From positions 3,593-67,592 of the IMG/VR virus record IMGVR_UViG_2974533383_000001: DNA of 64,000 bases, one strand, 5' to 3'. The notes beneath the pieces are model-generated. The model made no database searches and had not been told where the DNA came from. It saw only the letters and a program-made list of their open reading frames with translations. The DNA is from a virus. Lineage: Duplodnaviria > Caudoviricetes. Both the position numbers and the translations under genes were made by a program. This document shows positions 38,472-63,750 of the stretch, one piece after another (position 1 is the first letter of the stretch; each line of letters starts with the position of its first letter).

Positions 38472-38740
38472 TATGCCTCCTTGGTGGCGGGGTGGGTCGG
38501 GTGCCCGACCGTGATGAACTCTGCGGGCATGCGCATTGCGGATCCCATGAACTTGGCGAAGTCCTCCACCTTCCAGCGCGGGTCCAGCCCCACCGAGCCA
38601 CCCTTGATGAAGTAGACGCGGACCCGGGTGATGTGGCCCTCGGTCGCGGGATAGGGCGCCTTCTCCGTCACCGTGGAGGCGGACTGGATTTGGTCAATCT
38701 GGAACAGTTGGCCGTCGAAGACCATGAAGCTAGGACTCAT
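38471..38740 (-). CDS. hypothetical protein (89 aa)
   Basis: start MSPSFMVFDG; 3' end contains a repeat copy. Confidence 0.65.
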   Translation of the reverse strand: MSPSFMVFDGQLFQIDQIQSASTVTEKAPYPATEGHITRVRVYFIKGGSVGLDPRWKVEDFAKFMGSAMRMPAEFITVGHPTHPATKEA

Positions 38741-38987
38741 TGCTGCCTTTCGGATAGATGCCCTTGCGCTGGAGTTCCCGGCGCAGGTTCTTGTAGCCCC
38801 GGTGATCGGAGCCGGTGAAGTGCGTGCCGCTGATAGCACCGTTGGTGCCGTAGAGGATGATGCCGGACTTGGTGAACTTGTAGTCCACCCCGGCTCTGTA
38901 GGCGTCCATGAGGAGGTCCCGCAGCTCAGGCTTCTTGCCGCAGCGCCTCCTCAGCATTCTGGAGAAGTCGGTGGATTTACCACTCAC
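38730..38987 (-). CDS. HicA-like (dsRBD-fold) toxin homolog
   Basis: FTKSGIILYG..G...H.TGSDHRGYKNLRRELQRKG matches the actinophage HicA-like TxSDxR..N...L.R.G pattern. Confidence 0.55.
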   Translation of the reverse strand: MSGKSTDFSRMLRRRCGKKPELRDLLMDAYRAGVDYKFTKSGIILYGTNGAISGTHFTGSDHRGYKNLRRELQRKGIYPKGSNES

Positions 38988-39301
38988 CGGCCCAGCGCCT
39001 CGTCCTCCATGCGCAGCGCCTTGTGCTCATAGCAGAGGTAGCGCTGGTTACCACCCTTGATGCGCAGGACAATCGCCCGGCCGAAGGTGAAGCGCTTCTC
39101 GGCGTTGACCTCGTCACGGCAGTCATCGCACTGGCGCGAAGCTCCCTTGTAGGTCCGGTACGAGAGCTTATTGGCGTCGTCATCCTCGTCTTTCTTGGAG
39201 CGCTGGCGGACCTGCTTGACCGGCGCATCCTCCAACCCGGGGATGGGGAGGGGGACATCCTCCCACAACTGCGGGCCGGGCTTCTTCGGCAGCGGCTTCA
39301 C
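38984..39301 (-). CDS. hypothetical protein with CxxC...C..H
   Basis: CDDC and YLCYEH. Confidence 0.65.
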   Translation of the reverse strand: MKPLPKKPGPQLWEDVPLPIPGLEDAPVKQVRQRSKKDEDDDANKLSYRTYKGASRQCDDCRDEVNAEKRFTFGRAIVLRIKGGNQRYLCYEHKALRMEDEALGR

Positions 39302-39651
39302 CCGCGCCTCCCCGCCATGACCGGCTGGGCCCTGCGCAGCCTGGCCCCAGCGTTCTGCCGCGCCAACCTGGCCTTGCGGGCTGCGGCGAACTCCTCTGCC
39401 TGGCGAATGTTATCGAGGTCCTTGGCCGTCAGCACCACATCGGGCTTGGGCTGGCTCTTGCGCTCGATCACTTCCGGTGACTTGCGGTAGCACCCTGCGC
39501 ACATCCTGTTGCCCGCCCTGGCGACGGTGTTCTTGAACTCCTCCGGCAGCTGTGAGGCCAGCCATGAGGTGGGGCGGGTATCCCTGCCGCACGTCCCCTC
39601 GCAGGGGTAGACCAGCTGGGGATCAAAGACCGGAACCTTCTTCTTGACCAT
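39298..39651 (-). CDS. Zn-finger-like basic protein
   Basis: CEGTCGR...MCAGCY; Arg-rich C-terminus. Confidence 0.65.
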   Translation of the reverse strand: MVKKKVPVFDPQLVYPCEGTCGRDTRPTSWLASQLPEEFKNTVARAGNRMCAGCYRKSPEVIERKSQPKPDVVLTAKDLDNIRQAEEFAAARKARLARQNAGARLRRAQPVMAGRRG

Positions 39652-40733
39652 TACGCTTCCTTCTTGGCACGCGGCTTACGGGGTGCCTTGGGGCCGGGGA
39701 TCGGACGGATATCGAGCTTGGTGAATCCGGCGCGGGTGTACGCCTTCATCTCGGACGGGCCCACCTCCACCCAGCGGACGGTGTGGGTGCCGGTGGTGCC
39801 GGACAGGGTGGGCGGGATCAGCTTCTTCAAGCGGTCCTTTTCCTTCTTGCCGGAGGACTCCCGCTCATTGGCTGCAGCGTAGGAGTTGATGTAGGAGAGG
39901 ATTTCTGGATCCTCAATCAAGCCCTCAGCGTCGGTGTCGCCGCCGCGGCAGACCGTCGCGTATTCGCAGTAAGCCCAGCACCATTCGCGGGCCTTGTCGC
40001 GGGAGGCGTCCTGGCCGTTGATGACGGCGTACTTCACGTCCTCCACCCACTGGTCAATCTCGATCAGGACCTCGGGGTCATACCACATGCCGAAGGTGTA
40101 CGGCACGGGCTGGGCGCCGGAGCGGTCGTAGTACACATCGTTGATCCAGATGGGCTCGTCCGGGTTGAGGAGGCCCTTGCGGATCATCGCGTTGACGTAC
40201 TGAGTGAGTTGGAAAATCTGCTGCTGGGAGGGGCCGTACTGCTTGACGTAGTCCAGCTTGTCCTTGCTCTTGAGGTCCCAGACCCCCTGGACGCATTTGT
40301 AGGGGACGTCCTCACCCTTCTCTCGTCGGGCCTCCTGCTCCTCGAACTCTTTGACCGTCGCCGATCCCTCCCACGGGATGACAAGGTCAGCGTGGGTGTC
40401 CACGCCGCCGCCGGACAGGAAGGTCGAGTGCCCCTCCTCCTGGACCAGCAGGTTCGGGTGCATGACTTTGAGCTGCTTCTCGATGGCGTCACCAAGCACG
40501 GTGCCGATGAATGCTGCGGTCACGTCGCGCTCGTCCGACGGTGGAGTCTGGCGGATCATCAGGACCGCATGCTGACGGCAGTGGCCGATATTGGATGCGC
40601 CGAGCTTGAACTCGCGCTGCTGCTCCGAGCGATCGGTTCCGTTCGACGCCGCTTGGATCGCGTCGTAGACCATGGTGGACGCTATCTTCTCGAAGGGGCT
40701 TTCGCTGTGCTCGATAACTCTCTGGTACTGCAT
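39651..40733 (-). CDS. Cas4-like / PD-(D/E)xK exonuclease
   Basis: ASNIGHCRQ, GT..GDAIE, HADLVI, WDLKS, QL..Y, and C-terminal WCWAYCEYATVC (four Cys in total, Fe-S-type arrangement). Confidence 0.85.
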   Translation of the reverse strand: MQYQRVIEHSESPFEKIASTMVYDAIQAASNGTDRSEQQREFKLGASNIGHCRQHAVLMIRQTPPSDERDVTAAFIGTVLGDAIEKQLKVMHPNLLVQEEGHSTFLSGGGVDTHADLVIPWEGSATVKEFEEQEARREKGEDVPYKCVQGVWDLKSKDKLDYVKQYGPSQQQIFQLTQYVNAMIRKGLLNPDEPIWINDVYYDRSGAQPVPYTFGMWYDPEVLIEIDQWVEDVKYAVINGQDASRDKAREWCWAYCEYATVCRGGDTDAEGLIEDPEILSYINSYAAANERESSGKKEKDRLKKLIPPTLSGTTGTHTVRWVEVGPSEMKAYTRAGFTKLDIRPIPGPKAPRKPRAKKEA

Positions 40734-40763
40734 GGATTCCTCTCGTGGATGTGGGGGAAGGGT

Positions 40764-40798
40764 AGCGCGGGGCACCGACAATTTCAGTGCCCCGCGCT
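40764..40798. terminator. 12-bp hairpin abutting a repeat copy
   Basis: AGCGCGGGGCAC / GTGCCCCGCGCT. Confidence 0.45.
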
Positions 40799-40815
40799 GG
40801 GTCGGGTGCCCGACC

Positions 40816-41622
40816 CTAGTTGTCGGTCTCGCCGCTCAGCGGGCCGACCGGCTGGCCGTCCACTGTCGCCTGCCCGGGGAACGGGTCAGCTACGTGCTGC
40901 TGATAGCCCTGGCCGGCGGGGTCCTGCTCGGCATCCTTGGCTGCCCGGGCGGACAGTGCCGAGTTCAACAGACCCTGGTTGACCGCGTGCTGCTCGTCGG
41001 TCACGCCGGGGTGGCGCTCGACGCCATGGGCTGCCTGGGGGTGCTGGCCCTCCACCGCCGCCTGCATCTTCTTCACGGACTCGGCGTCGAAGCGAGCGCC
41101 GTTGCGCCACTCCTGTCCGGGGGCGACAATCCAGCGGACGACGTCATTGGTGCTGCCGCTGTCGTAGAGCGAGAGGCCGAACTGCGTGCCCAGCTGGATC
41201 GCGCAGCGCTTCAAGGCATCGGAAGCGGAGGACTTGAGGGCCATGTCCATGGCCTCGCCAAGCACCGGCTGGGCGTTGAACCCCACCGCCACCTCGTCAT
41301 AGAACGCGGCGAGCTGCGGGATGATCAGCCGGGAGGTGGTGGAGAACGCGATGGACCAGTTCATCTTGTCCTTGTTCGAGGACTGCGGAACCTGCTCCCG
41401 GTAGACCAGCTCCTGATGGATGATCTGCAGGGACCATCCGCCGAAGCCGAAGACCCGGTTCAGCATGGCCTTCACGTCCCATGCTTCGAGATAGCTCATG
41501 CCCTTCTTGGCCGCCACGCGGCTCTGCTGCAGGTTGGCCATGAGCGTCTTGAGCTGGCTCTCGGTGAGGGGGCGGACCTCGTCATAATTGAAATGCGGTG
41601 GGGGCATGGGGGTGAATGTCAT
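40816..41622 (-). CDS. Rad52/Rad22-family single-strand annealing protein
   Basis: GMSYLEAWDVKAMLNRVFGFGGWS and ALKSSASDALKRCAIQLG.QFGLSLY motifs. Confidence 0.92.
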   Translation of the reverse strand: MTFTPMPPPHFNYDEVRPLTESQLKTLMANLQQSRVAAKKGMSYLEAWDVKAMLNRVFGFGGWSLQIIHQELVYREQVPQSSNKDKMNWSIAFSTTSRLIIPQLAAFYDEVAVGFNAQPVLGEAMDMALKSSASDALKRCAIQLGTQFGLSLYDSGSTNDVVRWIVAPGQEWRNGARFDAESVKKMQAAVEGQHPQAAHGVERHPGVTDEQHAVNQGLLNSALSARAAKDAEQDPAGQGYQQHVADPFPGQATVDGQPVGPLSGETDN

Positions 41623-41628
41623 GTATCC

Positions 41629-41657
41629 ATCCTATCGTTTTTCGTTAACAAAGTCAA
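41629..41657 (-). promoter_or_regulatory. SigA-type promoter, probably leaderless
   Basis: TTGACT-17 nt-TAGGAT, then 6 nt to the ATG of the Rad52-like gene. Confidence 0.75.
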
Positions 41658-41774
41658 GCTTCAAGATTCAGTTAGCGTCTTGATTCTCTGGTTAATGAGA
41701 GCCGCTACAAGGCTCTGTGCGGGGACAGAAAAGGTCGGGACGGACATTCACCCATCCCGACCCCTTCCAGGCTG

Positions 41775-41999
41775 TCAGGCGACGTAGGAGCGCGCCCCGT
41801 CGATAGCCTCCTGAGACATCCCCGCCGCCTCATAGAAGCGAACGCGGTTGAAGCCGCCATGCTGGCGCTGCAAAGCCGAGGCCGTGATGGTCACCATGTG
41901 CGCCCAGGCGGCGACTGCGGTGCTGTCATCTCCGGTCCCGGGCTTGGCCTCGCGGTACTCCTTGGCCAGCTCAGTAAAGAACCTCCGCCCCAGCGACAT
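41775..41999 (-). CDS. hypothetical protein
   Basis: 74 aa; F...RFYEAAG motif; coupled start. Confidence 0.65.
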   Translation of the reverse strand: MSLGRRFFTELAKEYREAKPGTGDDSTAVAAWAHMVTITASALQRQHGGFNRVRFYEAAGMSQEAIDGARSYVA

Positions 42000-42532
42000 T
42001 AGAACTTCCTCCCGTGCTTGTAGGGGCGGGTGGTGTTGTAATGGCGCTTGGTCCGGTCGGCCTCGACGTACTTGTCCTCGCCGTCCACGAGGTAGACCAG
42101 GTCGTTGATGCGGATGTTGGCATCTGCCAACTCGACCAGGAACCCCTCCGGCTTGCAGAGCGGCTTGCCGTCGGCGTCGTAGCTCTGCTTGTCGTAGTAG
42201 ACCGTTTCTTCGCTGACCGTCTTGCCGGAGTCATCCTTGAGCTTGATGGTCGTGGAGTAGTAAATCTCCAGTGGATCGCGGCCGGAGCGGATTTCGCCCA
42301 GCGCCTCGGAGATTTCCTCGTGGATCAGCGCCAGCTTCTCGGTGATCGCCCGGCGCAGGTTCGCCTTGTAGGTTTCTGACTCCCCGGAGATGTCTGCGCT
42401 GGTGTTGCGATGCGGCCAGTCGTCATGGAAGCCATGGTCCGCGGAGTTCCCGCCGGCGGCATTGATGTGGAGGCGCTGGCCTGCTCCGATCAGGCGGTCC
42501 GTCTCGGAGATGGTGGGTGTGTCAGTGCTCAT
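41999..42532 (-). CDS. MazG-like nucleotide pyrophosphohydrolase
   Basis: KLALIHEEISEALGE.R...ELADANIRI.D...K..YN..RPYKHG. Confidence 0.85.
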   Translation of the reverse strand: MSTDTPTISETDRLIGAGQRLHINAAGGNSADHGFHDDWPHRNTSADISGESETYKANLRRAITEKLALIHEEISEALGEIRSGRDPLEIYYSTTIKLKDDSGKTVSEETVYYDKQSYDADGKPLCKPEGFLVELADANIRINDLVYLVDGEDKYVEADRTKRHYNTTRPYKHGRKF

Positions 42533-42762
42533 GAATGTGCTGCCTTTCGTTGTGTTGATCCTTGGTGTTGGGCATACCAGCGCACGCCGAGGTTGGCTAG
42601 CTCAGTTACGCCTTGCGGGCTGGTAAATGCCCACTGAATTGCTTCACCCGTTTCGAGTCCGTGCGGGTGGTCATATGGTGAATGTCGCTCACCGATCATG
42701 GTGATCGCGGATTCGTCGACCGAGTCCGGCACATGGACCTCGATACTAATGCTGTGAGTCAT
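42529..42762 (-). CDS. hypothetical protein (77 aa)
   Basis: RBS GAGGGGG; MTHSISIEVHVP... Confidence 0.6.
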   Translation of the reverse strand: MTHSISIEVHVPDSVDESAITMIGERHSPYDHPHGLETGEAIQWAFTSPQGVTELANLGVRWYAQHQGSTQRKAAHS

Positions 42763-43087
42763 CAGTTCCCCCCTCATTATCGTCCACAAAGACGACCTTG
42801 CCGTCTGTAGTGAAGCGTACCCATCCCATGAATGTCTTGATAGGGACGGATGCAACATCGGTTTCATGGACGCTAACGATGAAGCCCAGCTCTTGGGCTC
42901 TCTTGGGGTTCGCATGTGCCCATCGGTGGTCGGTAGTGCAGAGGCCGACGAGAATTTCGATGGCATGGCCACCTTCCCGTCGGCGCTGCCGGTGATGCAC
43001 CTCGCTGTAGCCGGAGCCACAGCGGGCGCATTGTCCGTTCTGTCGCTCCCGGACCAGCTCTCGTGCCCTGGTCGGGATCGCCGACAT
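42746..43087 (-). CDS. HNH endonuclease
   Basis: CARC...HHRQRRREGG....LVGLCTTDHRWAH. Confidence 0.85.
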   Translation of the reverse strand: MSAIPTRARELVRERQNGQCARCGSGYSEVHHRQRRREGGHAIEILVGLCTTDHRWAHANPKRAQELGFIVSVHETDVASVPIKTFMGWVRFTTDGKVVFVDDNEGGTDDSQH

Positions 43088-43632
43088 TAGAAGGGAACGT
43101 CCGGAACGGGCTGCAGCTCGGTGATGAAGAAGCTGTAGATGTCGCCGGACATCAGCCAGTTCGTCACGGCATTCCAGTCACGGAACTCCTGGGTGCCGGG
43201 CTTGGTGCCGGTGGAGAACCAGCGCTTGTCAGGGGTCCGCACCAGCAGGAACTCGTAGCTCTTGCCCTTGCGGTTGTACTTGACGCTAACGCTGATCCTT
43301 TCCCTTCGCGGCTCCGCTGGCTTGTGCTTGACGATGTCCTGCAGGTAGTCAATCCGGTCGGCGAGGGTCTGCTGCAGCTCCAGAGCGCACTGCAGTTCGC
43401 GCTCGGGATCGGGGGAGGGGGTTTGTGCTGGGTGCATGTAGATCGTTCCCTTTGCTGGTGGGAGGTAGACGCCGCCGGTATCGACGACGCCGTACCTGCG
43501 GCGGGTGTTGGAATCGAGATGGCGGCGGGTGCCGCGGGGACGGACGCCGGTGCTGTAGAAGTCGGCGCGGTCCTCGTCAATGGCCCGCTCCAACTCTGCC
43601 GACTCCATGGATTCGGTGTAGTAATCAGCCAT
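43087..43632 (-). CDS. hypothetical protein (181 aa)
   Basis: RBS AAGGAGG; C-terminal domain YEFLLVRTPDKRWFSTG. Confidence 0.7.
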   Translation of the reverse strand: MADYYTESMESAELERAIDEDRADFYSTGVRPRGTRRHLDSNTRRRYGVVDTGGVYLPPAKGTIYMHPAQTPSPDPERELQCALELQQTLADRIDYLQDIVKHKPAEPRRERISVSVKYNRKGKSYEFLLVRTPDKRWFSTGTKPGTQEFRDWNAVTNWLMSGDIYSFFITELQPVPDVPF

Positions 43633-44005
43633 TGGTGGCATCCTCCTTCGGGGGTTTGGTGGACCAGGTGAAGGCGAAGTCCTTCACCCAGTCCGGAACG
43701 TCGGTCTCCTCGCCCCGGAGGCCGGCGGGGCCGTCGATCAGGAAGTTGCCCACCATGGGTGAGCCAAAGTCGCCGATGCCGTTGCCTGTCTCGTAGGCCA
43801 GCAATTGCATGGCCCGTGCATTCATGCGTTCGCGGGCCTCGGGGTGGAACAGTCCCTCGTCGTCGCACCAGAAGGTCAGCTTGTCGGTGCCGATGCGGTC
43901 CACCGTCTGGCAGTCGATCAGCTGGTACATGTCTTGCAGCCCGTTGAACTCGACCTCGCGGATCGGCTCGTCATTGTCGAACGGGATCAGGATTCCCTTG
44001 GTCAT
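43625..44005 (-). CDS. DUF3846-like protein
   Basis: GILIP...LQDMYQLI...WCDDEGL...N.RA...VGNFLI.G. Confidence 0.7.
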   Translation of the reverse strand: MTKGILIPFDNDEPIREVEFNGLQDMYQLIDCQTVDRIGTDKLTFWCDDEGLFHPEARERMNARAMQLLAYETGNGIGDFGSPMVGNFLIDGPAGLRGEETDVPDWVKDFAFTWSTKPPKEDATNG

Positions 44006-44427: not shown

Positions 44428-44470
44428 GGTGTGTCTCGCTTTCTGTGGTGGAGGGTCGGGTGCCCGACCC

Positions 44471-47544: not shown

Positions 47545-47606
47545 GTCTAGCTCCTTCGTGTGTGATGTGGTGGGTCGGTTGCCCGACCCGGGTTAGTACT
47601 TGCCGA

Positions 47607-48227
47607 TCAGAACGGAGGCTCGGAATCCGGGCCGTTACCCCAGCCCCCGCCCTGGTTGCCGCCCTGCGGGGTAGCCCAGGGATCATCCTGCTGCTGGTAG
47701 TTGCCACCCTGCTGGCCGCCCTGCTGGTTGCCCTGGTAGTTCCCGCCCTGCTGGTTGCCGCCCTGGTAATTGCCGCCACCTTGCTGGCCACCTTGCTGGT
47801 TGCCGTTCTGGTAGTTGCCCTGGTTGCCGCCGCGGTTGTTGCCGCCGCCCTGGTTGTTGCCGCTGCGCTGGGTGCGGTTGACCTTGGCGTTGGCGTACTT
47901 GAGCGAGGGGCCAATCTCCACGATTTCCAGCTCGGTGACCGTGCGCTTCTCGCCGTTCTTCTCGTAGCTGCGTGACTTGAGGACGCCGGAAGCGATGACG
48001 CGCATGCCCTTGGTCAGCGACTCGGCGACGTTCTCGGCAGCTTCGCGCCAAACGGAGGACCGGAGGAACAGTGTCTCGCCGTCCTTCCATTCATTGCTCT
48101 GGCGGTCGAAGGTCCGCGGCGTGGAGGCGATGGTGAAGTTCGCCACCGCATCCCCGCTCGGGGTGAAGCGCAGCTCCGGGTCGTTGGTGAGGTTACCGAT
48201 CACGGTGATCGTTGTCTCGCCGGCCAT
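47607..48227 (-). CDS. ssb: single-stranded DNA-binding protein
   Basis: [31 protein letters not shown]; G/Q/N-rich linker; acidic tip DSEPPF. Confidence 0.97.
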
Positions 48228-48530
48228 TTAGTTCTCCTTCTTGGTGGTGGATTCGGCAGCTTGCCACTCGAAGTACATGTCCACGTACTTCCTGCCGTCG
48301 GTTTCATCGACTCGGGAGTTGCGGGTGGTGATGACCACGCGCCCCTTGTCGGTGACATAGGGTTCCCGGGTGTACTGCCGCAGCGAGTTCACACGGGTGA
48401 TGCGGATGCCTTCCGCGGCGAGGACGGGGTGGCCGGACTTCCGGGCCAGCTCCGCCGAAGCGTCGAAGTCCTTGACGATGTGGTTGGCCCGCCTCGCCGG
48501 GGGCACTGAACGTACTACTTTCCCTGCCAT
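48228..48530 (-). CDS. hypothetical protein
   Basis: 100 aa; RBS AAGGAG. Confidence 0.7.
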   Translation of the reverse strand: MAGKVVRSVPPARRANHIVKDFDASAELARKSGHPVLAAEGIRITRVNSLRQYTREPYVTDKGRVVITTRNSRVDETDGRKYVDMYFEWQAAESTTKKEN

Positions 48531-48644
48531 GGGATGGGTGCTCCTTAGTGTGGGTGGTGGACGGGGTGTGCAGTATCTAGTTTACACCTAAAGTGAACCG
48601 ATAATGTACGCTTATTGTCCACGATCTGGGTCGGTTACCCGACC

Positions 48645-49136
48645 CTAGAGGCTAATCGTCGGGTTATCGAGGCGCGCTTCGATGGTCCTAACGCGCTCGG
48701 TAAGCTGTTCGACGCGCTCCCAGACCGGCCGCGGCTCCGGCTTGACAGACTGAACCCCGTTTGAATCCACCATCGGGACCAGCTTGCCGGTGATTTTGAC
48801 CTCGCCGTCACTGGTGATGTAGGCGTTGCTGACCTCCACCCCATGCTCGGTCAACAGCGCCGCGATCCTCATGGCAGGGCTGGAGGATTCGACGGCAGGC
48901 TCGTCTCCGCTGGTGTCCCTTCCGTGCTCGGGGTCGGTGCAGCGGATGCCGACCTGGTCGAAGATTTCCCGGAACATGGAACCCTCGACGTAGCGGGATT
49001 CGGCCAGCGCAATGGCGGCGTCAGCCACCTCGCGCTCCCGCTCGATAAGCGCAGAGCTAATAGTTGCCTCGGCATAACCGCCGAGCTTATATCCAGTCAG
49101 GGTGCGTCCGACCAGCGACCGTATTGATTCAGGCAT
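48645..49136 (-). CDS. hypothetical protein (163 aa)
   Basis: RBS AGAAAGAGAG; C-terminal coiled coil. Confidence 0.7.
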   Translation of the reverse strand: MPESIRSLVGRTLTGYKLGGYAEATISSALIEREREVADAAIALAESRYVEGSMFREIFDQVGIRCTDPEHGRDTSGDEPAVESSSPAMRIAALLTEHGVEVSNAYITSDGEVKITGKLVPMVDSNGVQSVKPEPRPVWERVEQLTERVRTIEARLDNPTISL

Positions 49137-51317: not shown

Positions 51318-51376
51318 GGTGGGTTTCTCTCTCGGTGGGTGTGGAGGAGGGTCGGTTGCCCGACCCTCCCGGGGTA

Positions 51377-51792: not shown

Positions 51793-52015
51793 GGGTATGT
51801 CCTTCCTGGGGTCGGTTGCCCGACCCTTGATCGGTTGCCGGATCATCAAACCACTGGAGGCACACCGAGCAGAATGACTGCGGGGTGGGGGTGGACTCCA
51901 GCTGGACGGGGAAGCCGTGCTCGGCCACCATGTCCGGGTCGATCCGGCAGAGTGTTGCTGCGTCAGGCGGACAGTAGTAATTACCGTTCGCCCATTGGTA
52001 AGGGTTGTCTGCCAC
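51737..52015 (-). CDS. small Cys-containing protein
   Basis: RBS AAGGAG; YYCP..LC...FCSVC; first gene after the 52051-52079 promoter. Confidence 0.65.
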   Translation of the reverse strand: MADNPYQWANGNYYCPPDAATLCRIDPDMVAEHGFPVQLESTPTPQSFCSVCLQWFDDPATDQGSGNRPQEGHTHEHNTSAGGDADTGGNSG

Positions 52016-52050: not shown

Positions 52051-52079
52051 AGTCTATCACAAAGTACAGACAATGTCAA
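52051..52079 (-). promoter_or_regulatory. SigA-type promoter
   Basis: TTGACA-17 nt-TAGACT with extended -10 TG. Confidence 0.85.
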
Positions 52080-53404: not shown

Positions 53405-53460
53405 GGGTATGTCCTTTCAGGAGGAGGGGGTCGGTCACCCGACCCCCTCGGGTGGGTGGA

Positions 53461-54746: not shown

Positions 54747-54791
54747 GGTGTGTCCTATCTGTGGTGGGGGTCGGGTGCCCGACCCATCGGT

Positions 54792-56373: not shown

Positions 56374-56917
56374 GGGGTCCTCCAACTTCGGGTGAGTAGT
56401 GCAGGTCGTGGAGCAGGGCCCTGACCAGGTCCAAGCGGTCAAGGTGGTGGAGGTGGAACGTCTCGCCGTTGAGAACCAGCACGGCATGGCCGCGCTCTGC
56501 ATTCTGGACGATCAGCTCGACGTCGCTTTCCATCCTGTCGTGGAACAGCCAGAGGTTGTCGTCCTTCTCGTTCAGGATGGGCGGGACGTGGGTCGGTTGC
56601 CCGACCCTCTCGGCGATACGCTTGGACGCTGGGCGGTTCAGGTCGATGCAGAGCGGGCAAGTTACTTCCTCGATCAGGACCGAGAGCTTGCCGTTCTTCG
56701 TGCCACAGCGGGCAACCTGCATTCCCCAATCGAGATGTGTTGTCCCATCCGCCAGCACGTCGGCCAGGACCATGGGCATGCCGCGCTGGGCTTTCAGGAA
56801 CGCCTCGGACTTGCGGCAGATGAAGCAGGTCACTCGCGCCGGGTCGGTGGACTGGTGGCCCCGGTCCCCGCAGACTGCGTAGACCTCGGCTGGGCTGGTG
56901 ATGAAGTGGACAGGCAT
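56366..56917 (-). CDS. protein with two H..CG..VTCxxC Zn-finger-like modules
   Basis: RBS AAGGAGG; VCG..VTCFIC and RCG..VTCPLC. Confidence 0.7.
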   Translation of the reverse strand: MPVHFITSPAEVYAVCGDRGHQSTDPARVTCFICRKSEAFLKAQRGMPMVLADVLADGTTHLDWGMQVARCGTKNGKLSVLIEEVTCPLCIDLNRPASKRIAERVGQPTHVPPILNEKDDNLWLFHDRMESDVELIVQNAERGHAVLVLNGETFHLHHLDRLDLVRALLHDLHYSPEVGGPHD

Positions 56918-57641: not shown

Positions 57642-57651
57642 TGGTAGCTCC

Positions 57652-58074
57652 TCAGTAGGTGGGTCGGTTGCCCGACCCCTTCTCAAACAGCTCGTCCCAG
57701 TTGGCGTGCTGCTTCTTGCGGGCCTTGGTGCGCTCGATGTCCCGGCGTACTCGCAGCTTGGCGAGTACATCCTGGGCGGCAGCCTCGAAGTTCTCGGGGT
57801 TGCGGTTCATCATGCGCAGCGCCTCGCTCAGCTCCAGCCCCTTGTCCTCGATGCGCTTGGCTTTGGCCACCTCATGGTGGATGCGGTACATGAGCAGCAG
57901 GGAAGGCAGCCCGATGGGCCAGCCAATCCCGGCGAACATCCCCATGCATGCGGAGAATCCCAGGGTGGGACTTTCCTTGTCGAGGTAGAAGTAGTGGAAG
58001 CGGGCGAAGAAGAAGGCGGTGGTGAACGCAACACCGGGGTAGATCATCCAGAACAGCTGCCAGAAGTCCATCAC
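57652..58074 (-). CDS. membrane protein
   Basis: two N-terminal TM helices (WPIGLP motif). Confidence 0.7.
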   Translation of the reverse strand: MMDFWQLFWMIYPGVAFTTAFFFARFHYFYLDKESPTLGFSACMGMFAGIGWPIGLPSLLLMYRIHHEVAKAKRIEDKGLELSEALRMMNRNPENFEAAAQDVLAKLRVRRDIERTKARKKQHANWDELFEKGSGNRPTY

Positions 58075-58178
58075 TTGCCTGCCTTTCGGTCGATGAAGCG
58101 GTACATGAGCACTCCGACGAGGGTGCCGAGGCCGATCATGCCAAGGGTGAAGATCGCCGCGAACAGAATCAGCTCCAT
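58071..58178 (-). CDS. 35-aa single-TM micro-protein (not in the ORF track)
   Basis: MELILFAAIFTLGMIGLGTLVGVLMYRFIDRKAGK; coupled at both ends. Confidence 0.65.
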   Translation of the reverse strand: MELILFAAIFTLGMIGLGTLVGVLMYRFIDRKAGK

Positions 58179-58477
58179 TACTTGCCCGCCCTCCGCATGC
58201 AGTCCGAGTGGATGCAGCTGCCGTTCTCGATCAGCTCGGCGCAGTCATCCTCGGTCAGCCGGCGGGCCTTGACCACACCGGAGGACAGGTGGGTGTAGTC
58301 GAAGCCCACGGCGTACCCGCCGGGCCTGATCCAGCAGTTGATGTGCGGACCAGCGGCATGGCTGGTACCCCAGGTTCCCGGAGGATGGATCATGTAGACC
58401 TCCATCACGTGCTCCTGGCCGTCCCGCTCGACGATCAGCTTGTCCCCGATCCGGAGGGAGTAGGTGTTCAAGTCCAT
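58178..58477 (-). CDS. hypothetical protein
   Basis: 99 aa; preceded by a repeat copy and an RBS. Confidence 0.7.
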   Translation of the reverse strand: MDLNTYSLRIGDKLIVERDGQEHVMEVYMIHPPGTWGTSHAAGPHINCWIRPGGYAVGFDYTHLSSGVVKARRLTEDDCAELIENGSCIHSDCMRRAGK

Positions 58478-58531
58478 GGCGTTGCCTTTCGGAGGTGGAG
58501 GGTCGGTTACCCGACCCCTCGGTGGGTGGTG

Positions 58532-58699
58532 CTACGTGTCGTAGATGACCACGACGGGGGAGAAGAAGTCATCGGACCACTTCCAGTTCTTGCCCCGCTC
58601 GGCCAGCAGGGCGGTGAGTTCAATGGATTCATCGTCGTAGCCGAAGTCCTTGGCCGCGTTGATCTTGCGGACCAGCGCGGCGATCCGTTGCTCGCTCAC
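58532..58699 (-). CDS. small protein (55 aa)
   Basis: GTG overlaps the upstream TAG. Confidence 0.6.
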   Translation of the reverse strand: MSEQRIAALVRKINAAKDFGYDDESIELTALLAERGKNWKWSDDFFSPVVVIYDT

Positions 58700-59400
58700 T
58701 AGATGCCGTCCCGCAGAACGCGGAGGCTGGTGAGTTTGGCGAGGATTTCCCGCTCGCCCCATTCCTCCCCGGAGGTGTAGATCCATGAACCATCGACCAG
58801 GCAGAGGCTGATCTTCTGCTCGCTGGAGTTCTCGCCCTCGATCACCGAGTACTCCGCCGTCGGCAGGGTGAAGGGGTTCAGTGCGGCGAGCAGCTGGTCA
58901 GCGATCCCCCCGTTTCCAGACTTCCGCCACTTCTTGGTCAGCTCGTCGATGATATCGAGCTGTCCGGGCGTGAGGTTCACCGGCTCCAGCCCCTCCACCT
59001 TGGACTGCAACAGAGCGGTGAGTGGGACGATGGGCACGAAAGCCCGGAGGTGCTGGCCCCCTTGGTTGCCGACAATCAGCTGGACTACGTGCGCCTGGTC
59101 CTCGTCGAAGGACACATTCAGGTCCACCCCATTGTCCACTTGGCAGGGGAAGACGGTGTTGCCACTGATCGGCGTGGTCCACGGTTGGGTGGGTGCGGTC
59201 GGGTCCCAGCCGAGGCTGACCCGGGAGTTCCACGCAGCCAGCTTGTGCTGGTCCAAGACCACCTTCTCCAGCGCCTCGGCGTTGACGGAAATGGCCTTGG
59301 CGCCCCCGCTGCTGGTGATTTCAATGAGGTAGTCGTCGTTCACCCGGTCGATACCAAGGATCGTGCTGGACTGGGGGGCGGAGGAGTTGATGATGGTCAT
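58699..59400 (-). CDS. hypothetical protein, paralog of 59397-59903
   Basis: shared LLAA.NPF..P...VI.G and IL...L.VLR.G motifs. Confidence 0.75.
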   Translation of the reverse strand: MTIINSSAPQSSTILGIDRVNDDYLIEITSSGGAKAISVNAEALEKVVLDQHKLAAWNSRVSLGWDPTAPTQPWTTPISGNTVFPCQVDNGVDLNVSFDEDQAHVVQLIVGNQGGQHLRAFVPIVPLTALLQSKVEGLEPVNLTPGQLDIIDELTKKWRKSGNGGIADQLLAALNPFTLPTAEYSVIEGENSSEQKISLCLVDGSWIYTSGEEWGEREILAKLTSLRVLRDGI

Positions 59401-59903
59401 GACTCGCCCCCTTCCTCGGAGTCAGTGCGGAAGGATTCAATGGCGTCGAGGGTGTATCCCTCGCGGAGAACTTCGAGCTCCTTGTACTCGGCGAGGATAT
59501 CCACGCTGGTATAGCGCTTGCCGTAGTGGTTGATTTCAAACCATGAGTCGTCGGCGTAGATGAACAGCCGGAACTTCTCCTCGCCGGGGCGCCGGCCGCG
59601 GATCACCGTGCCCACCTCGTAGGGCATCTCGAAGGGGTTCATGGCGGCGAGGAGTTCCTGCCGCTGCTGCTTGTTGGTGAACACCCAGCTGTCGGCCAGC
59701 TTCTGCATCCGCTCAAGGAGACCAGTGTCCAGCTCCAGCGCTGCGGCCAGGTCGTTGCGATCGACCCGTATCTGGCCCATGGTTTCCATGAGCGGGCCTT
59801 CACCATCCCTGCCGATGGTTACCACCAGCTCGGAGCCGTCCGGCTGGTGCTGCACGGTCATCGCCCGGTTAATGGTGGTGGTGGACCTGATTTCGTGAAT
59901 CAT
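59397..59903 (-). CDS. hypothetical protein, paralog of 58699-59400
   Basis: shares the motifs above; preceded by a repeat copy and RBS GAAAGGA. Confidence 0.75.
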   Translation of the reverse strand: MIHEIRSTTTINRAMTVQHQPDGSELVVTIGRDGEGPLMETMGQIRVDRNDLAAALELDTGLLERMQKLADSWVFTNKQQRQELLAAMNPFEMPYEVGTVIRGRRPGEEKFRLFIYADDSWFEINHYGKRYTSVDILAEYKELEVLREGYTLDAIESFRTDSEEGGES

Positions 59904-59913
59904 GACGTTCCTT

Positions 59914-60240
59914 TCAGTGGGTCGGTTGCCCGACCCCTAGGTCCTTCTCGAATTGGTTGACGACGGCGGACAGCGCCTTCTTGGTTGCGATCAGGAGGTT
60001 GAATGCCTCCGTGAGGGTGATCTTGTAGCTGAACTCCGGCGCAAACTCAGGAAGATGGGTGCGCTGCCGTCCGGAGTCAGTGTCCCGCTCCACGTAGAGG
60101 TAGTGCGGCTGCCCGTTGGAGCGGCTGCCGGACTGGAAGTGGAGGGTGAACCCCTCCTGCATCAGGCCGAGGTGGTGAGCGAGGCTGTTGATGACCTCAA
60201 CCAGCGCATGCACGTCCTGCTTGGATACCCGGCGGCTCAT
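59914..60240 (-). CDS. hypothetical protein (108 aa)
   Basis: ATGA-coupled start; 3' end contains a repeat copy. Confidence 0.7.
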   Translation of the reverse strand: MSRRVSKQDVHALVEVINSLAHHLGLMQEGFTLHFQSGSRSNGQPHYLYVERDTDSGRQRTHLPEFAPEFSYKITLTEAFNLLIATKKALSAVVNQFEKDLGVGQPTH

Positions 60241-60398
60241 GCCCGGCCTACCATCACGGGGGCAAGACTGCGCATCTTGGCCTTGAGTATGGAGCGCTCG
60301 GCCAGCAGATACCACGGGGTCATCTGGTAGAGGTCGTTGACGATCATGAAGGATTGGAACCGGCGCTCTGCATCGAGGCGTGCCTTACGTGTACTCAT
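60237..60398 (-). CDS. 53-aa protein (not in the ORF track)
   Basis: RBS AAAGGA; MSTRKARLDAERRFQSFMIVNDLYQMTPWYLLAERSILKAKMRSLAPVMVGRA. Confidence 0.65.
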   Translation of the reverse strand: MSTRKARLDAERRFQSFMIVNDLYQMTPWYLLAERSILKAKMRSLAPVMVGRA

Positions 60399-60459
60399 GG
60401 GGTGTGTCCTTTGGTGGGAAGGAGGGGGAGGGTCGGTTGCCCGACCCTCCCGGGGGTGG

Positions 60460-60894
60460 TTAGCGGGTGGAGGAGCAGACGCAGTTGCCTACTCCGCAGC
60501 CGGCATGGTGGGCGTGGAGCCTAATGTAGTGCCCGCAGTTGGGGCACGCCTGGTCGTCTGGGCTGTGGCGGTGAGCGAACTCGTGGTTGTCCGCCGGGTC
60601 CGAGTCGTAGAAGCGACGCACCCACTGGGCATCGAAGCGCTGGCCGAACCGCTCCGGTTCGACGACGACAATCTGGGCGTGCCCCATAATCATGATGACC
60701 GGGCCGGGGCTGCCGTAGCGGCTGCCAACAAAGCCCGTGACGTGCTCCGTTCCGGACGACGTCATCCGGACGTGGGTTGTGACCGATACCTGGCCGGCGA
60801 TGCCCACTTCGAGCTTGAGGTCCAAGACCTCGGCCAGCCTAGCCAAAGTAATCAGCCGGATCGCCGTCGCCAATCGCTTCCATGACGTCGTCAA
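60460..60894 (-). CDS. protein with C-terminal Cys/His cluster
   Basis: CPNCGHYIRLH..H.GC...CVC. Confidence 0.65.
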   Translation of the reverse strand: MTTSWKRLATAIRLITLARLAEVLDLKLEVGIAGQVSVTTHVRMTSSGTEHVTGFVGSRYGSPGPVIMIMGHAQIVVVEPERFGQRFDAQWVRRFYDSDPADNHEFAHRHSPDDQACPNCGHYIRLHAHHAGCGVGNCVCSSTR

Positions 60895-61153
60895 TATTGC
60901 CGTGGCGCATGGCCTCGTCTACCTTGGCCTGCGTCTCCTCGTGGGTGGCGGTGGGGCGCTCGCCGACCACCAGCTGCTGGCCGTGGCCGGTGCCGAGGGT
61001 GCCGGTGCCACGCTCCACAAAGTGAGCGCCACACATGTTGGCCCACGGTCCGTAGATGGTTTTGGCGTCGTACTCGGCGGGCTTGGATACCCCGTCGTCC
61101 TGCTTGCAGAAGTCGCAGTCGGGGAGTGATGCGACATAGGCGATGTTAGCCAT
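60839..61153 (-). CDS. conserved phage Zn-binding protein (104 aa)
   Basis: CDFC..AEYDAKT..GPWANMC..HF..LGTG.GQ. Confidence 0.8.
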   Translation of the reverse strand: MANIAYVASLPDCDFCKQDDGVSKPAEYDAKTIYGPWANMCGAHFVERGTGTLGTGHGQQLVVGERPTATHEETQAKVDEAMRHGNIDDVMEAIGDGDPADYFG

Positions 61154-61244
61154 GGTGTGCTCTCTTTCTGGGTGTGGGGGGTCGGTTACCCGACCCCTCG
61201 GTGGTGTTCTTTGCGGGGTAATTCCGTACAGGGGTATTTGAGGG

Positions 61245-61448
61245 TCAGGAAGTGAGCTTGTCGCGCTCTTCATCGGAGCGTTGACGTGCTTCCTTGACGT
61301 AGTGCAGCGCCGACTCAGTCTTGCCAGCATCGAGAGCATCGACGGCATCGGTGAGAGCTTCGGAGATATAGGCGAAAGCTGCCAGTGGGTGGTGGTTGGC
61401 AGCTTCGGCAGCGACCTTGGCGGGTGACTTACCGGGGGTGAGTGGCAT
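61245..61448 (-). CDS. hypothetical protein (67 aa)
   Basis: first gene after the 61547-61575 promoter; preceded by a repeat copy. Confidence 0.6.
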   Translation of the reverse strand: MPLTPGKSPAKVAAEAANHHPLAAFAYISEALTDAVDALDAGKTESALHYVKEARQRSDEERDKLTS

Positions 61449-61546
61449 GGTGGAATCCGTTCGTTCGGAGCGGGGTCGGTTACCCGACCCCCTCGGTTGG
61501 GGTGTTGGTCCGGTAGGTTCTGGGCACTACCGGACCAACAACACAA

Positions 61547-61575
61547 ACTCTACCACAAGGTACAGATTGTGTCAA
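61547..61575 (-). promoter_or_regulatory. SigA-type promoter
   Basis: TTGACA-17 nt-TAGAGT with extended -10 TG. Confidence 0.85.
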
Positions 61576-61596
61576 GTTTCAAAGTTCAGTGAAGGT

Positions 61597-62010
61597 TCAG
61601 ATGCATTGTTCGGTGAACAGGTACCACACCCCGTTGGTTCCGGGCAGTGCCACCTCTCCCTCTCCCTCAGTGCGGGGGGCGGTGACGTGGTTGTTCCCCA
61701 CGACGTCGATCCGTGAGCCTTGGCTTGGCTTGCATGAGGTCCGGAGTTTGGACCACCCATTGTTGGAATCCCAGGCATCCCAGGCCAGCGCTCGATCCGA
61801 TTCCGTGAGGTTCCCGCAAGCGCGGTTCCCGTGCAGCTGGCAGTCGAAGCCGGGTTCATCTTCCATGGGCTCCTGCGCCGCTATGGAGACGGGAATCTGG
61901 GTCGGTTGCCCGACCCCTTGAACGGTGGGGGTGGAGAGCGCGCCGATGGTGAGGCCGGCGGATACGATGACCAGCGCAGCAGCGGAGGCAGTGAGGGCGT
62001 TGAGTTTCAT
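61597..62010 (-). CDS. secreted or membrane-anchored protein
   Basis: N-terminal signal/TM segment; EDEPGFDCQLHGNRACG motif seen in actinophage membrane proteins. Confidence 0.75.
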   Translation of the reverse strand: MKLNALTASAAALVIVSAGLTIGALSTPTVQGVGQPTQIPVSIAAQEPMEDEPGFDCQLHGNRACGNLTESDRALAWDAWDSNNGWSKLRTSCKPSQGSRIDVVGNNHVTAPRTEGEGEVALPGTNGVWYLFTEQCI

Positions 62011-62113
62011 GGGTGTGTCCTTACGTGGGGTGTGTGGGTAATCGAGTGGGGGAGGGTCGGTTACCCGACCCCTAAGAATGAGCGTGGGAGCTGGGCATAC
62101 GTCCCCCTGGGAA

Positions 62114-62497
62114 TCACAGCTCCCCCACGTGGGCGCCGGGGATGGAGGCTTCCACTATCTGGTGAGCACCGGCGGCAGGCCGGAAGGTTTCACCCATCCT
62201 GCGCTCAAATTCGTCCACGCACTGGCCGGAGGCGTTTTCCAGTGAGACGTAAAAGTCGGGGGCCGACGCCCTAGCGATGACAAACCACCCAAAGTGGGCC
62301 AGCGCTCGATGGTTCTGGGCGTGGGGGTACTGACGTACCCGAGCTTTCCCATCCTGCACCACCACTAGTCGCCAGTATCCCGGGATCAAGTCAGTGGTGA
62401 GGGCGACCGACGCCCGGTAGGGGGCTAACCGCTGGTCGGTGAAGGTGGAACCGCGGACTATGCGGTGAGGGGAGCGACGTTCCATGAGCGCATCCAT
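62114..62497 (-). CDS. hypothetical protein
   Basis: 127 aa; preceded by two repeat copies. Confidence 0.55.
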   Translation of the reverse strand: MDALMERRSPHRIVRGSTFTDQRLAPYRASVALTTDLIPGYWRLVVVQDGKARVRQYPHAQNHRALAHFGWFVIARASAPDFYVSLENASGQCVDEFERRMGETFRPAAGAHQIVEASIPGAHVGEL

Positions 62498-62669
62498 TCA
62501 GTGTGCGGGGTGGGGGTCGGTTACCCGACCCTATGGGCGGTGAGTGGGGGTCGGTTACCCGACCCATGAGTGCCTGGCCGGCGACCCACGTCCCCCTGGG
62601 TAATTCCCTGGGCCGAGCCATGACCAGCGCTCGATACCCGTCACGGGATAGGGGGGAGTGGGGGTAGTG

Positions 62670-62795
62670 CTAGGCGTCTACTGAAAAAGTGAACCGTGAC
62701 CCGTAGGGCAGTGAGTAGAGCCAGTCACTGAGACGGGACGGGATACGGGCAATGGTCCGGCGACCAATGGTGAAGTAGGACTTGCGCGGGTACAT
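62670..62795 (-). CDS. 41-aa micro-protein (not in the ORF track)
   Basis: repeat copy, C/A-rich spacer and RBS AGATAGG upstream, as for other early genes; MYPRKSYFTIGRRTIARIPSRLSDWLYSLPYGSRFTFSVDA. Confidence 0.55.
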   Translation of the reverse strand: MYPRKSYFTIGRRTIARIPSRLSDWLYSLPYGSRFTFSVDA

Positions 62796-62890
62796 GGTGA
62801 GCGCCTATCTGTGGTGGGTGGGGGTGGGTCGGTTACCCGACCCTGTGAGCAGGGGAAGCCCCGGACCAGCGCCCGAGACTTCCCCATCCC

Positions 62891-62977
62891 ACAGGGGAGA
62901 GAGAGAGAGAGACATAGAGAGGGATAGGGAGAGGGGGAGGGGGAGAGGGAGACCCCCCACTGAGGGGAGGTCTCCCT
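62891..62977. repeat. purine/pyrimidine-skewed tract with GA microsatellite, G-runs and a hairpin
   Basis: (GA)n at about 62896-62912; five G>=3 runs at 62921-62949; stem AGGGAGACC / GGTCTCCCT. Confidence 0.8.
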
Positions 62978-62988
62978 ACTGTGAGTTC

Positions 62989-63750
62989 CTAGGCGATAAG
63001 TTCCTCCAGTTCGGCGGCGATGGTGGCGGCCGCCCCGTTGAATGTGTTGACGTCGGACTCGGTGATGATTCCCCCACCCTTGACGTAGATATCCAAGGCG
63101 GACTTTGCCCGGGCCATGAAAGCGAGGATATCGGCGAACGTCATAGCGTCATCGTCGGCGGGGGTGGGGTCGGTTACCCGACCCTCAGATTCCTCAGTGT
63201 CGGCCGATTCCTCAGTGTCCTTGGCGTCCTTGGCCGCTTTACTGGCCGCTTTCCGTGCCTTGGCCTGTTCTTTGTTGTACGCCTCGAAAGCGTCATTGAC
63301 TACGGTCCGGTCATCGTCGGCGGGTGGGGTGGTCCGTTCCTCCATGCCAGCTTTGGCCAGTGCCACTCCTGCCTGCAGGTAGGGGCGGAGCGTGTTCTTT
63401 TTGGTGGCGACCTTTTTGTTTTCTGCCGCGTTGCCGTAGTCCGCGCTGTAGAGGATCTTTGTGGCGTCAGCCAAGTTGGCTTCACCCTTGAACGGGTGGA
63501 CCATGGCGGCGGCGTAGGCCACACGAGAGAGGATGACGCGGGTGGATTCAAAGGCCAGCTTGGCCGCCTTGAAAGCGTCATCGGCGGACGTGTGCTCGAT
63601 GGTGCCAGCGGCCCAACGTGCCCGGAGGTCGCGGATTACGTTGGCTTCATCGGTGGCCAGCGCAGCCTTATCGGCGGCAGTGAGAGCGCGGCCCTTGACT
63701 TTGGGCGTAGCGGTGGCAGGAGTGGCGGGGGTAGCGGTGGCTGTTGCCAT
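62989..63750 (-). CDS. Ala/Lys-rich hypothetical protein, first gene of the early arm (253 aa)
   Basis: RBS AAAAGGA; MATATATPATPATATPK...; contains a repeat copy in frame. Confidence 0.75.
   Translation of the reverse strand: MATATATPATPATATPKVKGRALTAADKAALATDEANVIRDLRARWAAGTIEHTSADDAFKAAKLAFESTRVILSRVAYAAAMVHPFKGEANLADATKILYSADYGNAAENKKVATKKNTLRPYLQAGVALAKAGMEERTTPPADDDRTVVNDAFEAYNKEQAKARKAASKAAKDAKDTEESADTEESEGRVTDPTPADDDAMTFADILAFMARAKSALDIYVKGGGIITESDVNTFNGAAATIAAELEELIA

Follow-up and report, generated by a model that had tools for sequence, protein, structure and literature searches.

The stretch of DNA considered here (the window, 64,000 nucleotides (nt) of IMG/VR virus record IMGVR_UViG_2974533383_000001) belongs to a Tank-like phage and is 96-99% identical to Arthrobacter phage Wilde (Tankvirus, Cluster AP). 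The genome is 67,592 bp long, its direct terminal repeat measures 589 bp, and genome positions 3593 to 67592 make up the window; a rightward arm with the structural genes extends to about 32.7 kb of the window, and a leftward arm runs from there to the right end. The proteins acting on nucleic acids that the phage encodes include SSB, a Rad52-like recombinase, an exonuclease and a primase/helicase. Distributed over both arms is a short palindrome, GGGTCGG-N4-CCGACCC, whose structure, placement and probable mode of action are the subject of this analysis. The paper describing Cluster AP makes no mention of the palindromic repeat (PMC5513430). Scans of the window for Rfam families and tRNAs gave no match.

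A search of the window for GGTCGG-N4-CCGACC that tolerated up to one mismatch returned 28 matches, all of them exact, where 0.78 would be expected by chance and none of 100 shuffled sequences reached 28. With the outer G-C pair included, the element comprises 18 bases with a 7-bp stem, and its arms are perfect in 27 copies, carry one mismatch in a single copy and carry two in none. The spacing of the arms is strictly fixed, with 11 bp from one half-site centre to the other, and isolated half-sites are not enriched. Density rises to the right end, where the last 4 kb of the window hold 10 copies. There is a sole long-loop variant with the same arms (GGTCGGGA / TCCCGACC), at about 41733 to 41770 (genome 45325), which has a 14-nt loop, is followed by TTTTC on the minus strand, looks like a terminator and is conserved in Wilde; the recurrence of the arms in this terminator is probably a coincidence.

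Six phages with a GGGTCGG-type element were compared, namely Tank, Wilde, Rizwana, BruhMoment, AWGoat and SilentRX, of which the last three are more distant phages of A. globiformis with the same palindrome arms. Wilde holds 29-30 copies, Rizwana 28-30, BruhMoment and AWGoat 32 each and SilentRX 33, and the arms are invariant in all six, with neither compensatory nor G-U variants. An earlier note, made from the letters of the window alone, had described the element as strand-polarised and had taken a GNRA tetraloop as its defining feature. Its tally for the leftward copies between 38494 and 63184 was reproduced exactly (on the sense, here minus, strand GCAA in 8, GTAA in 9, GTGA in 1 and GCAC in 4, the last of these not being GNRA), as were the GCAA loops on the plus strand of both intergenic right-arm copies (11269 and 13484), by which the loop flips between the arms, and the one self-complementary copy (GTAC, 21798 to 21815). 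In the Tank lineage, GNRA loops on the sense strand account for 20 of 26 copies in Tank (terminal-repeat copies excluded), 21 of 27 in Wilde and 24 of 26 in Rizwana, with sense to antisense ratios of 20:1, 21:2 and 24:2, respectively. The second part of that description did not hold among the more distant phages, where only 0 of 29 (BruhMoment), 5 of 31 (AWGoat) and 7 of 32 (SilentRX) copies have a sense-strand GNRA loop; GNRA loops are a trait of the Tank lineage and not the conserved property of the element.

The polarity itself was borne out in all six phages, beyond what composition would give and through turnover of the loops. Sense loops are A-rich and T-poor in each of the six, with an A:T ratio of about 4:1 against an intergenic sense-strand background of 1.3-1.65:1, and composition alone would give the orientation seen in intergenic loops with a probability of about 1e-4 in both Wilde and Rizwana, and of 7e-3 in BruhMoment. 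Polarity of the intergenic loops is nearly absolute, and at least six sites are positionally conserved between lineages, with the loop changed and the orientation retained. Flipped copies number four, all of them intragenic and lineage-specific, while the copy in the terminal repeat points one way in Tank and the other way in Rizwana. Compared with Tank, Wilde has an extra flipped copy at 38369 (compare Tank genome position ~38520), within gp46 and 23 nt past its start codon; it was gained as a 23-nt patch that is the reverse complement of another copy, and this identity shows a route by which new copies arise.

Placement relative to genes, counted on the annotations of Wilde and Rizwana, links the element to the junctions between cistrons. 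Among intergenic gaps of at least 30 nt, a copy is present in 18 of 30 in Wilde and in 16 of 29 in Rizwana. When a gap is short, the element is found -1 to 18 nt past the stop and 15-32 nt ahead of the next start, in long gaps it is close to either the stop or the start, and the linker of 5-20 nt between element and Shine-Dalgarno (SD) sequence is A/C-rich and G-poor. Where genes overlap in BruhMoment, copies lie within the upstream open reading frame (ORF), 17-18 nt ahead of the next start. The intergenic copies of the right arm follow the major capsid and major tail genes, and those of the left arm include copies after the SSB and recombinase genes. Gaps that lack the element hold hairpins of varied sequence, SigA-like promoters or, at the junction of the arms, a U-tract terminator.

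A different palindrome has been found at the same junctions in sister phages. MellowYellow (PQ184806.1) and Beagle (MN586021.1), which are related to the six through structural genes, hold no copies of the GGGTCGG element; they carry GCCGGT-NN-ACCGGC, in 25 and 23 copies, respectively, in the left arm (36.5-69.9 kb of each genome), with the sense consensus AAACC-GCCGGT-CC-ACCGGC-AGTAA. These copies lie mostly close upstream of start codons (17-29 nt in ten that were measured), and they are polar too, with spacer CC against GG at 13:1 in MellowYellow and 11:2 in Beagle.

In the bacterial genomes searched, the GGGTCGG element is not a repeat. The exact element with a GYAA loop gave 79 single matches in unrelated bacteria and none in Arthrobacter, and with any loop it occurred 0-2 times per genome, equal to the reversed control, in 301 genomes from the order that contains Cellulomonas, a sample among which the host strain was not identified. 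A scan of IMG/VR gave, among the matches listed, mostly single sites and two contigs with 3-4 sites. The element is thus a phage feature and not of host origin. A host REP/BIME-like repeat and a mimic of a CRISPR repeat were both rejected, as no repetition was seen in Arthrobacter or in the 301 sampled genomes.

Folding predicts the hairpin in each context that was folded, with the sense form 1.5 kcal/mol more stable than the antisense form. Past the 7-bp stem, Watson-Crick pairing extends by no pair in 21 of 28 copies and by 3-4 pairs in 5 of 28, and a permutation in which 5' flanks were set against the 3' flanks of other copies gave no significant extension (p=0.13). The transcript hairpin of the earlier note is therefore retained as a predicted fold, with a loop that is not generally GNRA; the copies at 51349, 53428 and 60430 do reach stems of 10-11 bp as it had stated, but such lengths are not frequent. 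A search for covariation across relatives, which the note had suggested, found none, as the arms are invariant. Its statement that a U tract is usually lacking and that the copies are not standard intrinsic terminators agrees with a terminator scan of the window, which lists none of the palindrome copies; their downstream flanks are C/A-rich, and the palindrome does not combine a G+C hairpin with an immediate U tract in the manner of an intrinsic terminator. A canonical bidirectional terminator with A tract, G+C stem and T tract is present at the junction of the arms (32711 to 32753), 35 nt past the copy at 32789, which shows that the phage uses ordinary U-tract terminators. The copy at 32789 lies between the stop codon and this terminator, so it is neither that terminator nor linked to a ribosome site.

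On the evidence of polarity, placement at transcribed junctions, folding, absence from the sampled host-order genomes and a sister palindrome that occupies the same junctions and is likewise polar, all of which support an RNA reading, the element is best read as a sense-strand RNA hairpin that is recognised by its sequence, sets mRNA stability and insulates ribosome sites, to which we assign a probability of about 0.45. The element would then be a cis-acting signal read on the transcribed strand, most likely as a stem-loop in long polycistronic mRNAs, with a 7-bp G+C stem and a tetraloop that in the Tank lineage is mostly GNRA. As an intercistronic barrier, it might shield the upstream cistron from 3'-to-5' decay or mark a processing boundary, and in this way it would set the relative abundance of mRNA segments; as an insulator, it would keep the next ribosome-binding site clear of upstream structure. 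Copies after the capsid, tail, SSB and recombinase genes fit a role in stability and abundance. A dedicated, probably phage-encoded, putative factor would read the hairpin. Since neither arm varies in any copy or relative, recognition of the sequence by a factor is probable, and the lack of G-U or compensatory variants together with the switch of sequence in the sister lineage argues that recognition is sequence-specific, by a factor that co-evolves, and does not depend on structure alone. Transcription sets the orientation of the centre, and this orientation is kept as loops turn over, which argues for reading as a single-strand hairpin and not by a symmetric dimer that sits on duplex DNA; such a hairpin would be expected to yield a perfect palindrome whose centre is polar. 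Copy number, invariance, placement, polarity and absence from the sampled host-order genomes are direct observations; that RNA is the active form, that the element acts through stability and insulation and that a factor exists is what we infer.

Several observations weigh against this RNA hairpin. Invariant halves around a variable centre are the usual signature of a site for a dimer on double-stranded DNA, upkeep of the helix by compensatory change is not seen (the arms never vary), and the scarcity of GNRA loops in BruhMoment, AWGoat and SilentRX has been given above. The 2-nt centre of the sister palindrome means that folding requires a conserved pair to be opened, and its flanks give C-A, not G-U, on the sense strand. 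Conserved copies in the tape measure gene and in gp91 are linked to neither a stop nor a start. Transcription runs in a single direction along each arm, so that polarity with transcription is here inseparable from polarity toward the nearer end of the genome. To our knowledge, few RNA-binding proteins read the sequence of a stem, and the search for an RNA-binding factor gave no convincing candidate.

In that search, eight Wilde proteins were found to be confined, among the genomes compared, to phages with the GGGTCG-type palindrome (gp55, 59, 81, 83, 87, 91, 102 and 109), and no DNA-binding domain was found in any of them. The model of the gp109-like protein is all-helical and matched no fold. 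The gp59-like protein (38733 to 38987, minus strand) has 85 amino acids, is basic with a pI of 10.2 and is annotated as a HicA-like toxin in Rizwana; its model is alpha-beta3-alpha, and the resemblance to HicA is weak, with TM scores of 0.5-0.6 and E-values that are not significant. The basic, 100-residue gp75-like protein (48231 to 48530, minus strand) adjoins the SSB gene and is conserved in 8 of 8 phages compared; its ESM Atlas model weakly resembles R3H/KH (KhpB-like) domains that bind single-stranded nucleic acids (TM 0.55-0.63), a lead and no more. No regulator emerged from Pfam scans that covered about 50 proteins, mostly of the left arm, and neither an RNA polymerase nor a sigma factor was found in the protein domain scans. 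An apparent ribbon-helix-helix (RHH) protein of CopG/NikA-like type, with a faint match to HicB, is encoded between the small and large terminase genes (2027 to 2407, plus strand). As a binder of the palindrome it was rejected, since its DNA-reading beta-strand differs among phages with the same palindrome and does not track palindrome type. The helix-turn-helix (HTH) protein was rejected as a replication initiator, and the ParB-N-like protein as being widespread and present also in phages with the other palindrome.

The main rival to the RNA hairpin is a site on duplex DNA for a dimeric, phage-encoded protein, which would act as a global regulator or roadblock comparable to the predicted Cluster O factor, to the sites of KorB and Noc, or to stoperators, with the loop polarity a secondary effect of selection on a transcript hairpin that such a site cannot avoid forming. 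This is a real though doubtful possibility, and it accounts best for arms that do not vary, for a sister palindrome whose centre has 2 nt and for intragenic copies. Half-sites of 7 bp that do not vary, fixed spacing, a variable centre and the lack of decayed copies are all in its favour, and 11 bp from centre to centre suits dimers of HTH type. The switch of palindrome at the same places in related phages is what a co-evolving pair of protein and DNA would produce, copies stand inside genes and in a 3' untranslated region (UTR), RHH and ParB-N-like proteins are encoded by the phage, and the authors of the Cluster O study inferred likewise for their repeats (PMC4351075). It leaves unexplained, however, the near-absolute orientation of the centre in six phages and the loss of flipped copies over time, and no candidate fits: the HTH protein is the initiator, the reading strand of the RHH protein varies, and the proteins matched in distribution have no DNA-binding domain. 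The phage moreover appears to be lytic, and neither repressor nor integrase has been reported (PMC5513430). The earlier preference for a hairpin over a plain symmetric operator has thus gained in its strand-specific part, while the operator, weakened by the polarity, keeps the standing just given.

A bolder form of the RNA hairpin, rather unlikely as it stands, takes the element as an RNA 'address tag' on nearly every cistron, read by a phage protein that would process, protect or license mRNAs with a logic like that of SLBP or Csy4. Tag and reader would co-evolve into orthogonal pairs in sister phages, GGGTCGG-N4-CCGACCC in one and GCCGGT-NN-ACCGGC in the other, and candidate readers by distribution include the HicA-like protein at 38733 to 38987 (minus strand).

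It is improbable that the hairpin works without a factor, pausing or partly terminating host RNA polymerase as an attenuator without a U tract that tunes read-through of the operon. The G+C-rich stem and stable loop would suit such a role, copies follow highly expressed genes, and three late-operon copies have stems of 10-16 bp with UUU in the 3' arm. Most copies, on the other hand, have no U tract following them, canonical U-tract terminators are present elsewhere (one of them 35 nt downstream of the copy at 32789), and structure alone needs no invariant stem, as the varied sequences of other intergenic hairpins in the genome attest.

About as improbable is that the element serves replication, recombination, packaging or protection from host exonucleases, either as a hairpin of single-stranded DNA or as a DNA signal polarised toward the ends in the manner of Chi, and is oriented by genome half. 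The orientation flips at the middle of the genome, as would be expected also if the signal were read from the nearer DNA end; SSB, the Rad52-like recombinase, an exonuclease and a primase/helicase are encoded, and the gp75-like protein with its weak modelled likeness to R3H/KH, a lead only, lies beside the SSB gene. Such a signal gives no reason for near-confinement to intergenic DNA, roughly 5% of the genome, with set distances to stops and starts, and Tank and Rizwana have the terminal-repeat copy in opposite orientations.

Equally remote is an element that marks recombination boundaries or forms a small mobile unit shuffling cassettes (like T4-type PeSL), or else a promoter for an unrecognised polymerase or sigma factor. 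Blocks of similarity between Tank and Rizwana start or end at copies (genome 38209, 52220, 54970, 60206, 61272, 63492 and 65065), which may reflect exchange of modules or merely intergenic position; gene borders and conserved 18-mers would anchor the ends of alignments anyway, and boundaries of insertions and deletions between Tank and Wilde do not coincide with copies. The gp46 copy of Wilde, gained as a 23-nt patch identical to another copy, would suit a mobile unit and copies are dense among the tiny genes of the right end, whereas at least six sites are positionally conserved across lineages. For a promoter, there is no -10-like element and no room between element and SD sequence in the shortest cases (15-16 nt), SigA-like promoters exist separately, and domain scans found no RNA polymerase or sigma factor.

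The individual copies may be followed along the window from left to right. After the major capsid gene (ORF 9425 to 11254), a plus-strand copy with plus loop GCAA lies at 11269 to 11286, 37 nt ahead of the next ATG, and its flanks add three Watson-Crick and three G-U pairs. The second, also with plus loop GCAA on the plus strand (13484 to 13501), follows the major tail protein gene (12550 to 13473) and has an extended stem (z = -3.8); this gap copy was confirmed in Tank, Wilde and Rizwana. The GTAC copy (plus strand) is within the tape measure ORF, about 145 nt short of its stop, at a position kept in Rizwana (there GCAA) and BruhMoment. The same gene holds 132-nt tandem repeats (20480 to 21166), an ordinary feature. 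Three copies that had been regarded as unclear with respect to local gene direction are all real and can now be placed. The minus-strand copy at 32789 to 32806 (GCAC on plus, GTGC on minus) occupies the convergent gap, in the 3' UTR of the last leftward gene, between its stop and the terminator at 32711 to 32753, and its orthologues in Rizwana, AWGoat and SilentRX have leftward sense, with GCAA or GACA on minus. A flipped copy at 34627 to 34644 (plus strand, plus loop GCAA), found in Tank and Wilde only, lies within the leftward ORF 34216 to 34749. The third, at 63938 to 63955 with GTGA on plus, belongs to the right copy of the 589-bp direct terminal repeat (equivalent to genome position 528), and its counterpart in Rizwana has GTAA on minus.

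All other copies are on the minus strand, and their loops are given in sense. Four have a GCAC loop: the copy at 38494 to 38511, the only one with a mismatch (in the outermost pair), is 23 nt ahead of a GTG start; that at 40799 to 40816, which is kept in 6 of 6 phages, overlaps the recombinase gene at its TAG stop, and a second hairpin, with 15 predicted pairs, comes after it; that at 44453 to 44470 abuts the stop of the primase/helicase gene, 26 nt ahead of the next ATG; and that at 54768 to 54785 is 22 nt ahead of an ATG. Copies with a GCAA loop begin with that at 47572 to 47589, after the SSB gene and 29 nt ahead of the next ATG, which Rizwana and BruhMoment have kept; short repeats coding for Gly, Asn and Gln (47652 to 47875), an ordinary feature, stand in the tail of the SSB gene. 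At 51349 to 51366 the flanks give a 10-bp stem, 32 nt ahead of an ATG, and the copy at 51809 to 51826, in the 3' tail of a gp81-like ORF and 17 nt ahead of an ATG with an SD sequence, is kept in Rizwana, AWGoat and SilentRX. The copy at 56590 to 56607 is within the gp91-like ORF, without a nearby start, and is kept in Rizwana; that at 57661 to 57678 takes up the final codons of the upstream ORF, 20 nt ahead of the next ATG; that at 59919 to 59936 overlaps a TAG stop, 16 nt ahead of an ATG; that at 60430 to 60447 has an 11-bp stem through its flanks (z = -5.2); and that at 61899 to 61916, kept in position in 6 of 6 phages, is within the gp106-like ORF and 38 nt ahead of an internal ATG with an SD sequence. 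The sole GTGA loop of the leftward copies, at 53428 to 53445, has flanks that give an 11-bp stem and is 24 nt ahead of an ATG.

Among the copies with a GTAA loop, the one at 48628 to 48645 overlaps a TAG stop, with a long, AT-richer gap downstream. Those at 58500 to 58517, 61179 to 61196, 62054 to 62071 and 62826 to 62843 are 23, 26, 44 and 31 nt ahead of an ATG, respectively, and those at 62514 to 62531 (downstream member) and 62548 to 62565 (upstream member) form a tandem pair, 34 nt apart. At 63167 to 63184 a copy lies within the first leftward gene (gp109-like, 62992 to 63759), in a stretch modelled as a low-confidence linker. The copy at 61473 to 61490 belongs to a 5' UTR, and the SigA-like promoter at 61575 to 61547 lies about 55 nt upstream of it.

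Other signals occur in the same gaps. Two strong leftward SigA-like promoters (minus strand) are found at 61547 to 61575 (TTGACA-17-TAGAGT) and 52051 to 52079 (TTGACA-17-TAGACT), both with an upstream TG and with upstream sequences that resemble each other; the first shares its gap with the copy at 61473 to 61490, and the second stands in a gap without the element. A second short repeat (sense ATTNCCCAGGGGGACG) lies at 62100 to 62111 and 62589 to 62600, upstream of two elements in right-end gaps, and two copies of this 12-mer are not above chance. A long, CT-rich polypyrimidine tract on the sense strand (Wilde 67005 to 67191, window about 62844 to 62990) stands between the first leftward gene and the second, upstream of the copy at 62826 to 62843.

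Among known systems, the closest are found in other phages of actinobacteria, where invariant palindromes in lytic members have been on record since 2015, in Cluster O (PMC4351075) and then in Cluster EG (PMC7302621). With 17-18 bp, invariant arms of 7-8 bp and a short variable centre, in many copies that are mostly intergenic or near starts, dense at the right end and conserved across divergent members, such repeats form a type to which the Tank element belongs. The Cluster O mycobacteriophages carry 17-bp repeats, TGTTCGG-NNN-CCGAACA, in about 34 copies, of which about one third are intragenic; the invariant 7-bp arms, the inner TCGG/CCGA and the greater density toward the right end are common to both, and the Cluster O phages are likewise lytic and encode ParB-like domain proteins, a dimeric DNA-binding protein having been predicted (PMC4351075). 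Their repeat differs in its 3-bp centre, in its slight orientation bias (14 TTT against 6 AAA, top strand) and in not being tightly linked to starts (PMC4351075), whereas in Tank orientation is nearly absolute and most copies are near a start. Toward the right end of their genomes, Cluster EG Microbacterium phages have 18-bp inverted repeats (GATCAACC-NN-GGTTGATC) that precede starts by 14-22 bp; they share length, invariant arms and variable centre with the Tank element, and their phages likewise have terminal repeats and a MuF-protease fusion (PMC7302621). They differ in sequence, in a 2-bp centre and in a number of only 8-10 copies, with no analysis of polarity or loops reported (PMC7302621), as opposed to about 28 copies in Tank that include late-operon and intragenic sites.

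The stoperators of Cluster A, which are the sites of L5 gp71, resemble the Tank element in number (24-30 per genome), in intergenic or gene-end placement and in orientation with transcription, but they are asymmetric, of 13-14 bp, and are bound by the immunity repressor of a temperate phage. A stoperator was rejected for Tank, where the palindrome is perfect and where neither the annotation (PMC5513430) nor the protein scans showed a repressor or integrase. The asymmetric 13-bp start-associated sequence of Clusters K and EF, which lies at the ribosome-binding site, was also rejected, the Tank element being palindromic and ending 5-20 nt upstream of the SD sequence. Lambda nut boxB with N shares a short hairpin read on the transcript and a GNRA-like loop; there, one nut serves each early operon, is paired with boxA and is recognised by its loop, while in Tank there are about 28 copies with varying loops and invariant stems. 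A nut site of lambda type was rejected on the number of copies, the variation of loops among relatives and the lack of a conserved companion motif in the flanks, and the antitermination of N/boxB type that had been suggested earlier does not suit an element that is found within genes and in a 3' UTR as well as at stop-start junctions.

Two hairpins of cellular mRNAs offer a parallel to the RNA reading. In E. coli, the REP of malE-malF is a short stable intercistronic hairpin that blocks 3' exonucleases, and REPs are host chromosomal elements mobilised by RAYT transposases; the Tank element is likewise short, stable in prediction and placed between or after cistrons, but REPs are borne by the host and the Tank element is absent as a repeat from the sampled genomes of the host order. 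The histone mRNA stem-loop, with a 6-bp stem and a 4-nt loop that are invariant in sequence across many mRNAs, is read by SLBP; the short invariant stem and 4-nt loop are shared, while the counterpart of SLBP in Tank is only putative.

What is new in comparison with the known repeats is the strong polarity, the GNRA loops of the Tank lineage, the conservation of positions across clusters and the switch of specificity. An orientation that follows transcription almost without exception speaks for a form on one strand, probably of RNA, and positions that are conserved over several clusters while loops turn over give a handle on the function of such repeats. The natural switch between sister phages should allow co-occurrence of genes to reveal the cognate factor. 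Should the duplex-DNA reading be true, the repeats would mark the network of a global regulator in a lytic phage. If the RNA reading is true, one repeated hairpin would regulate most cistrons, a compact form of post-transcriptional control, and may offer orthogonal insulator parts for high-G+C hosts.

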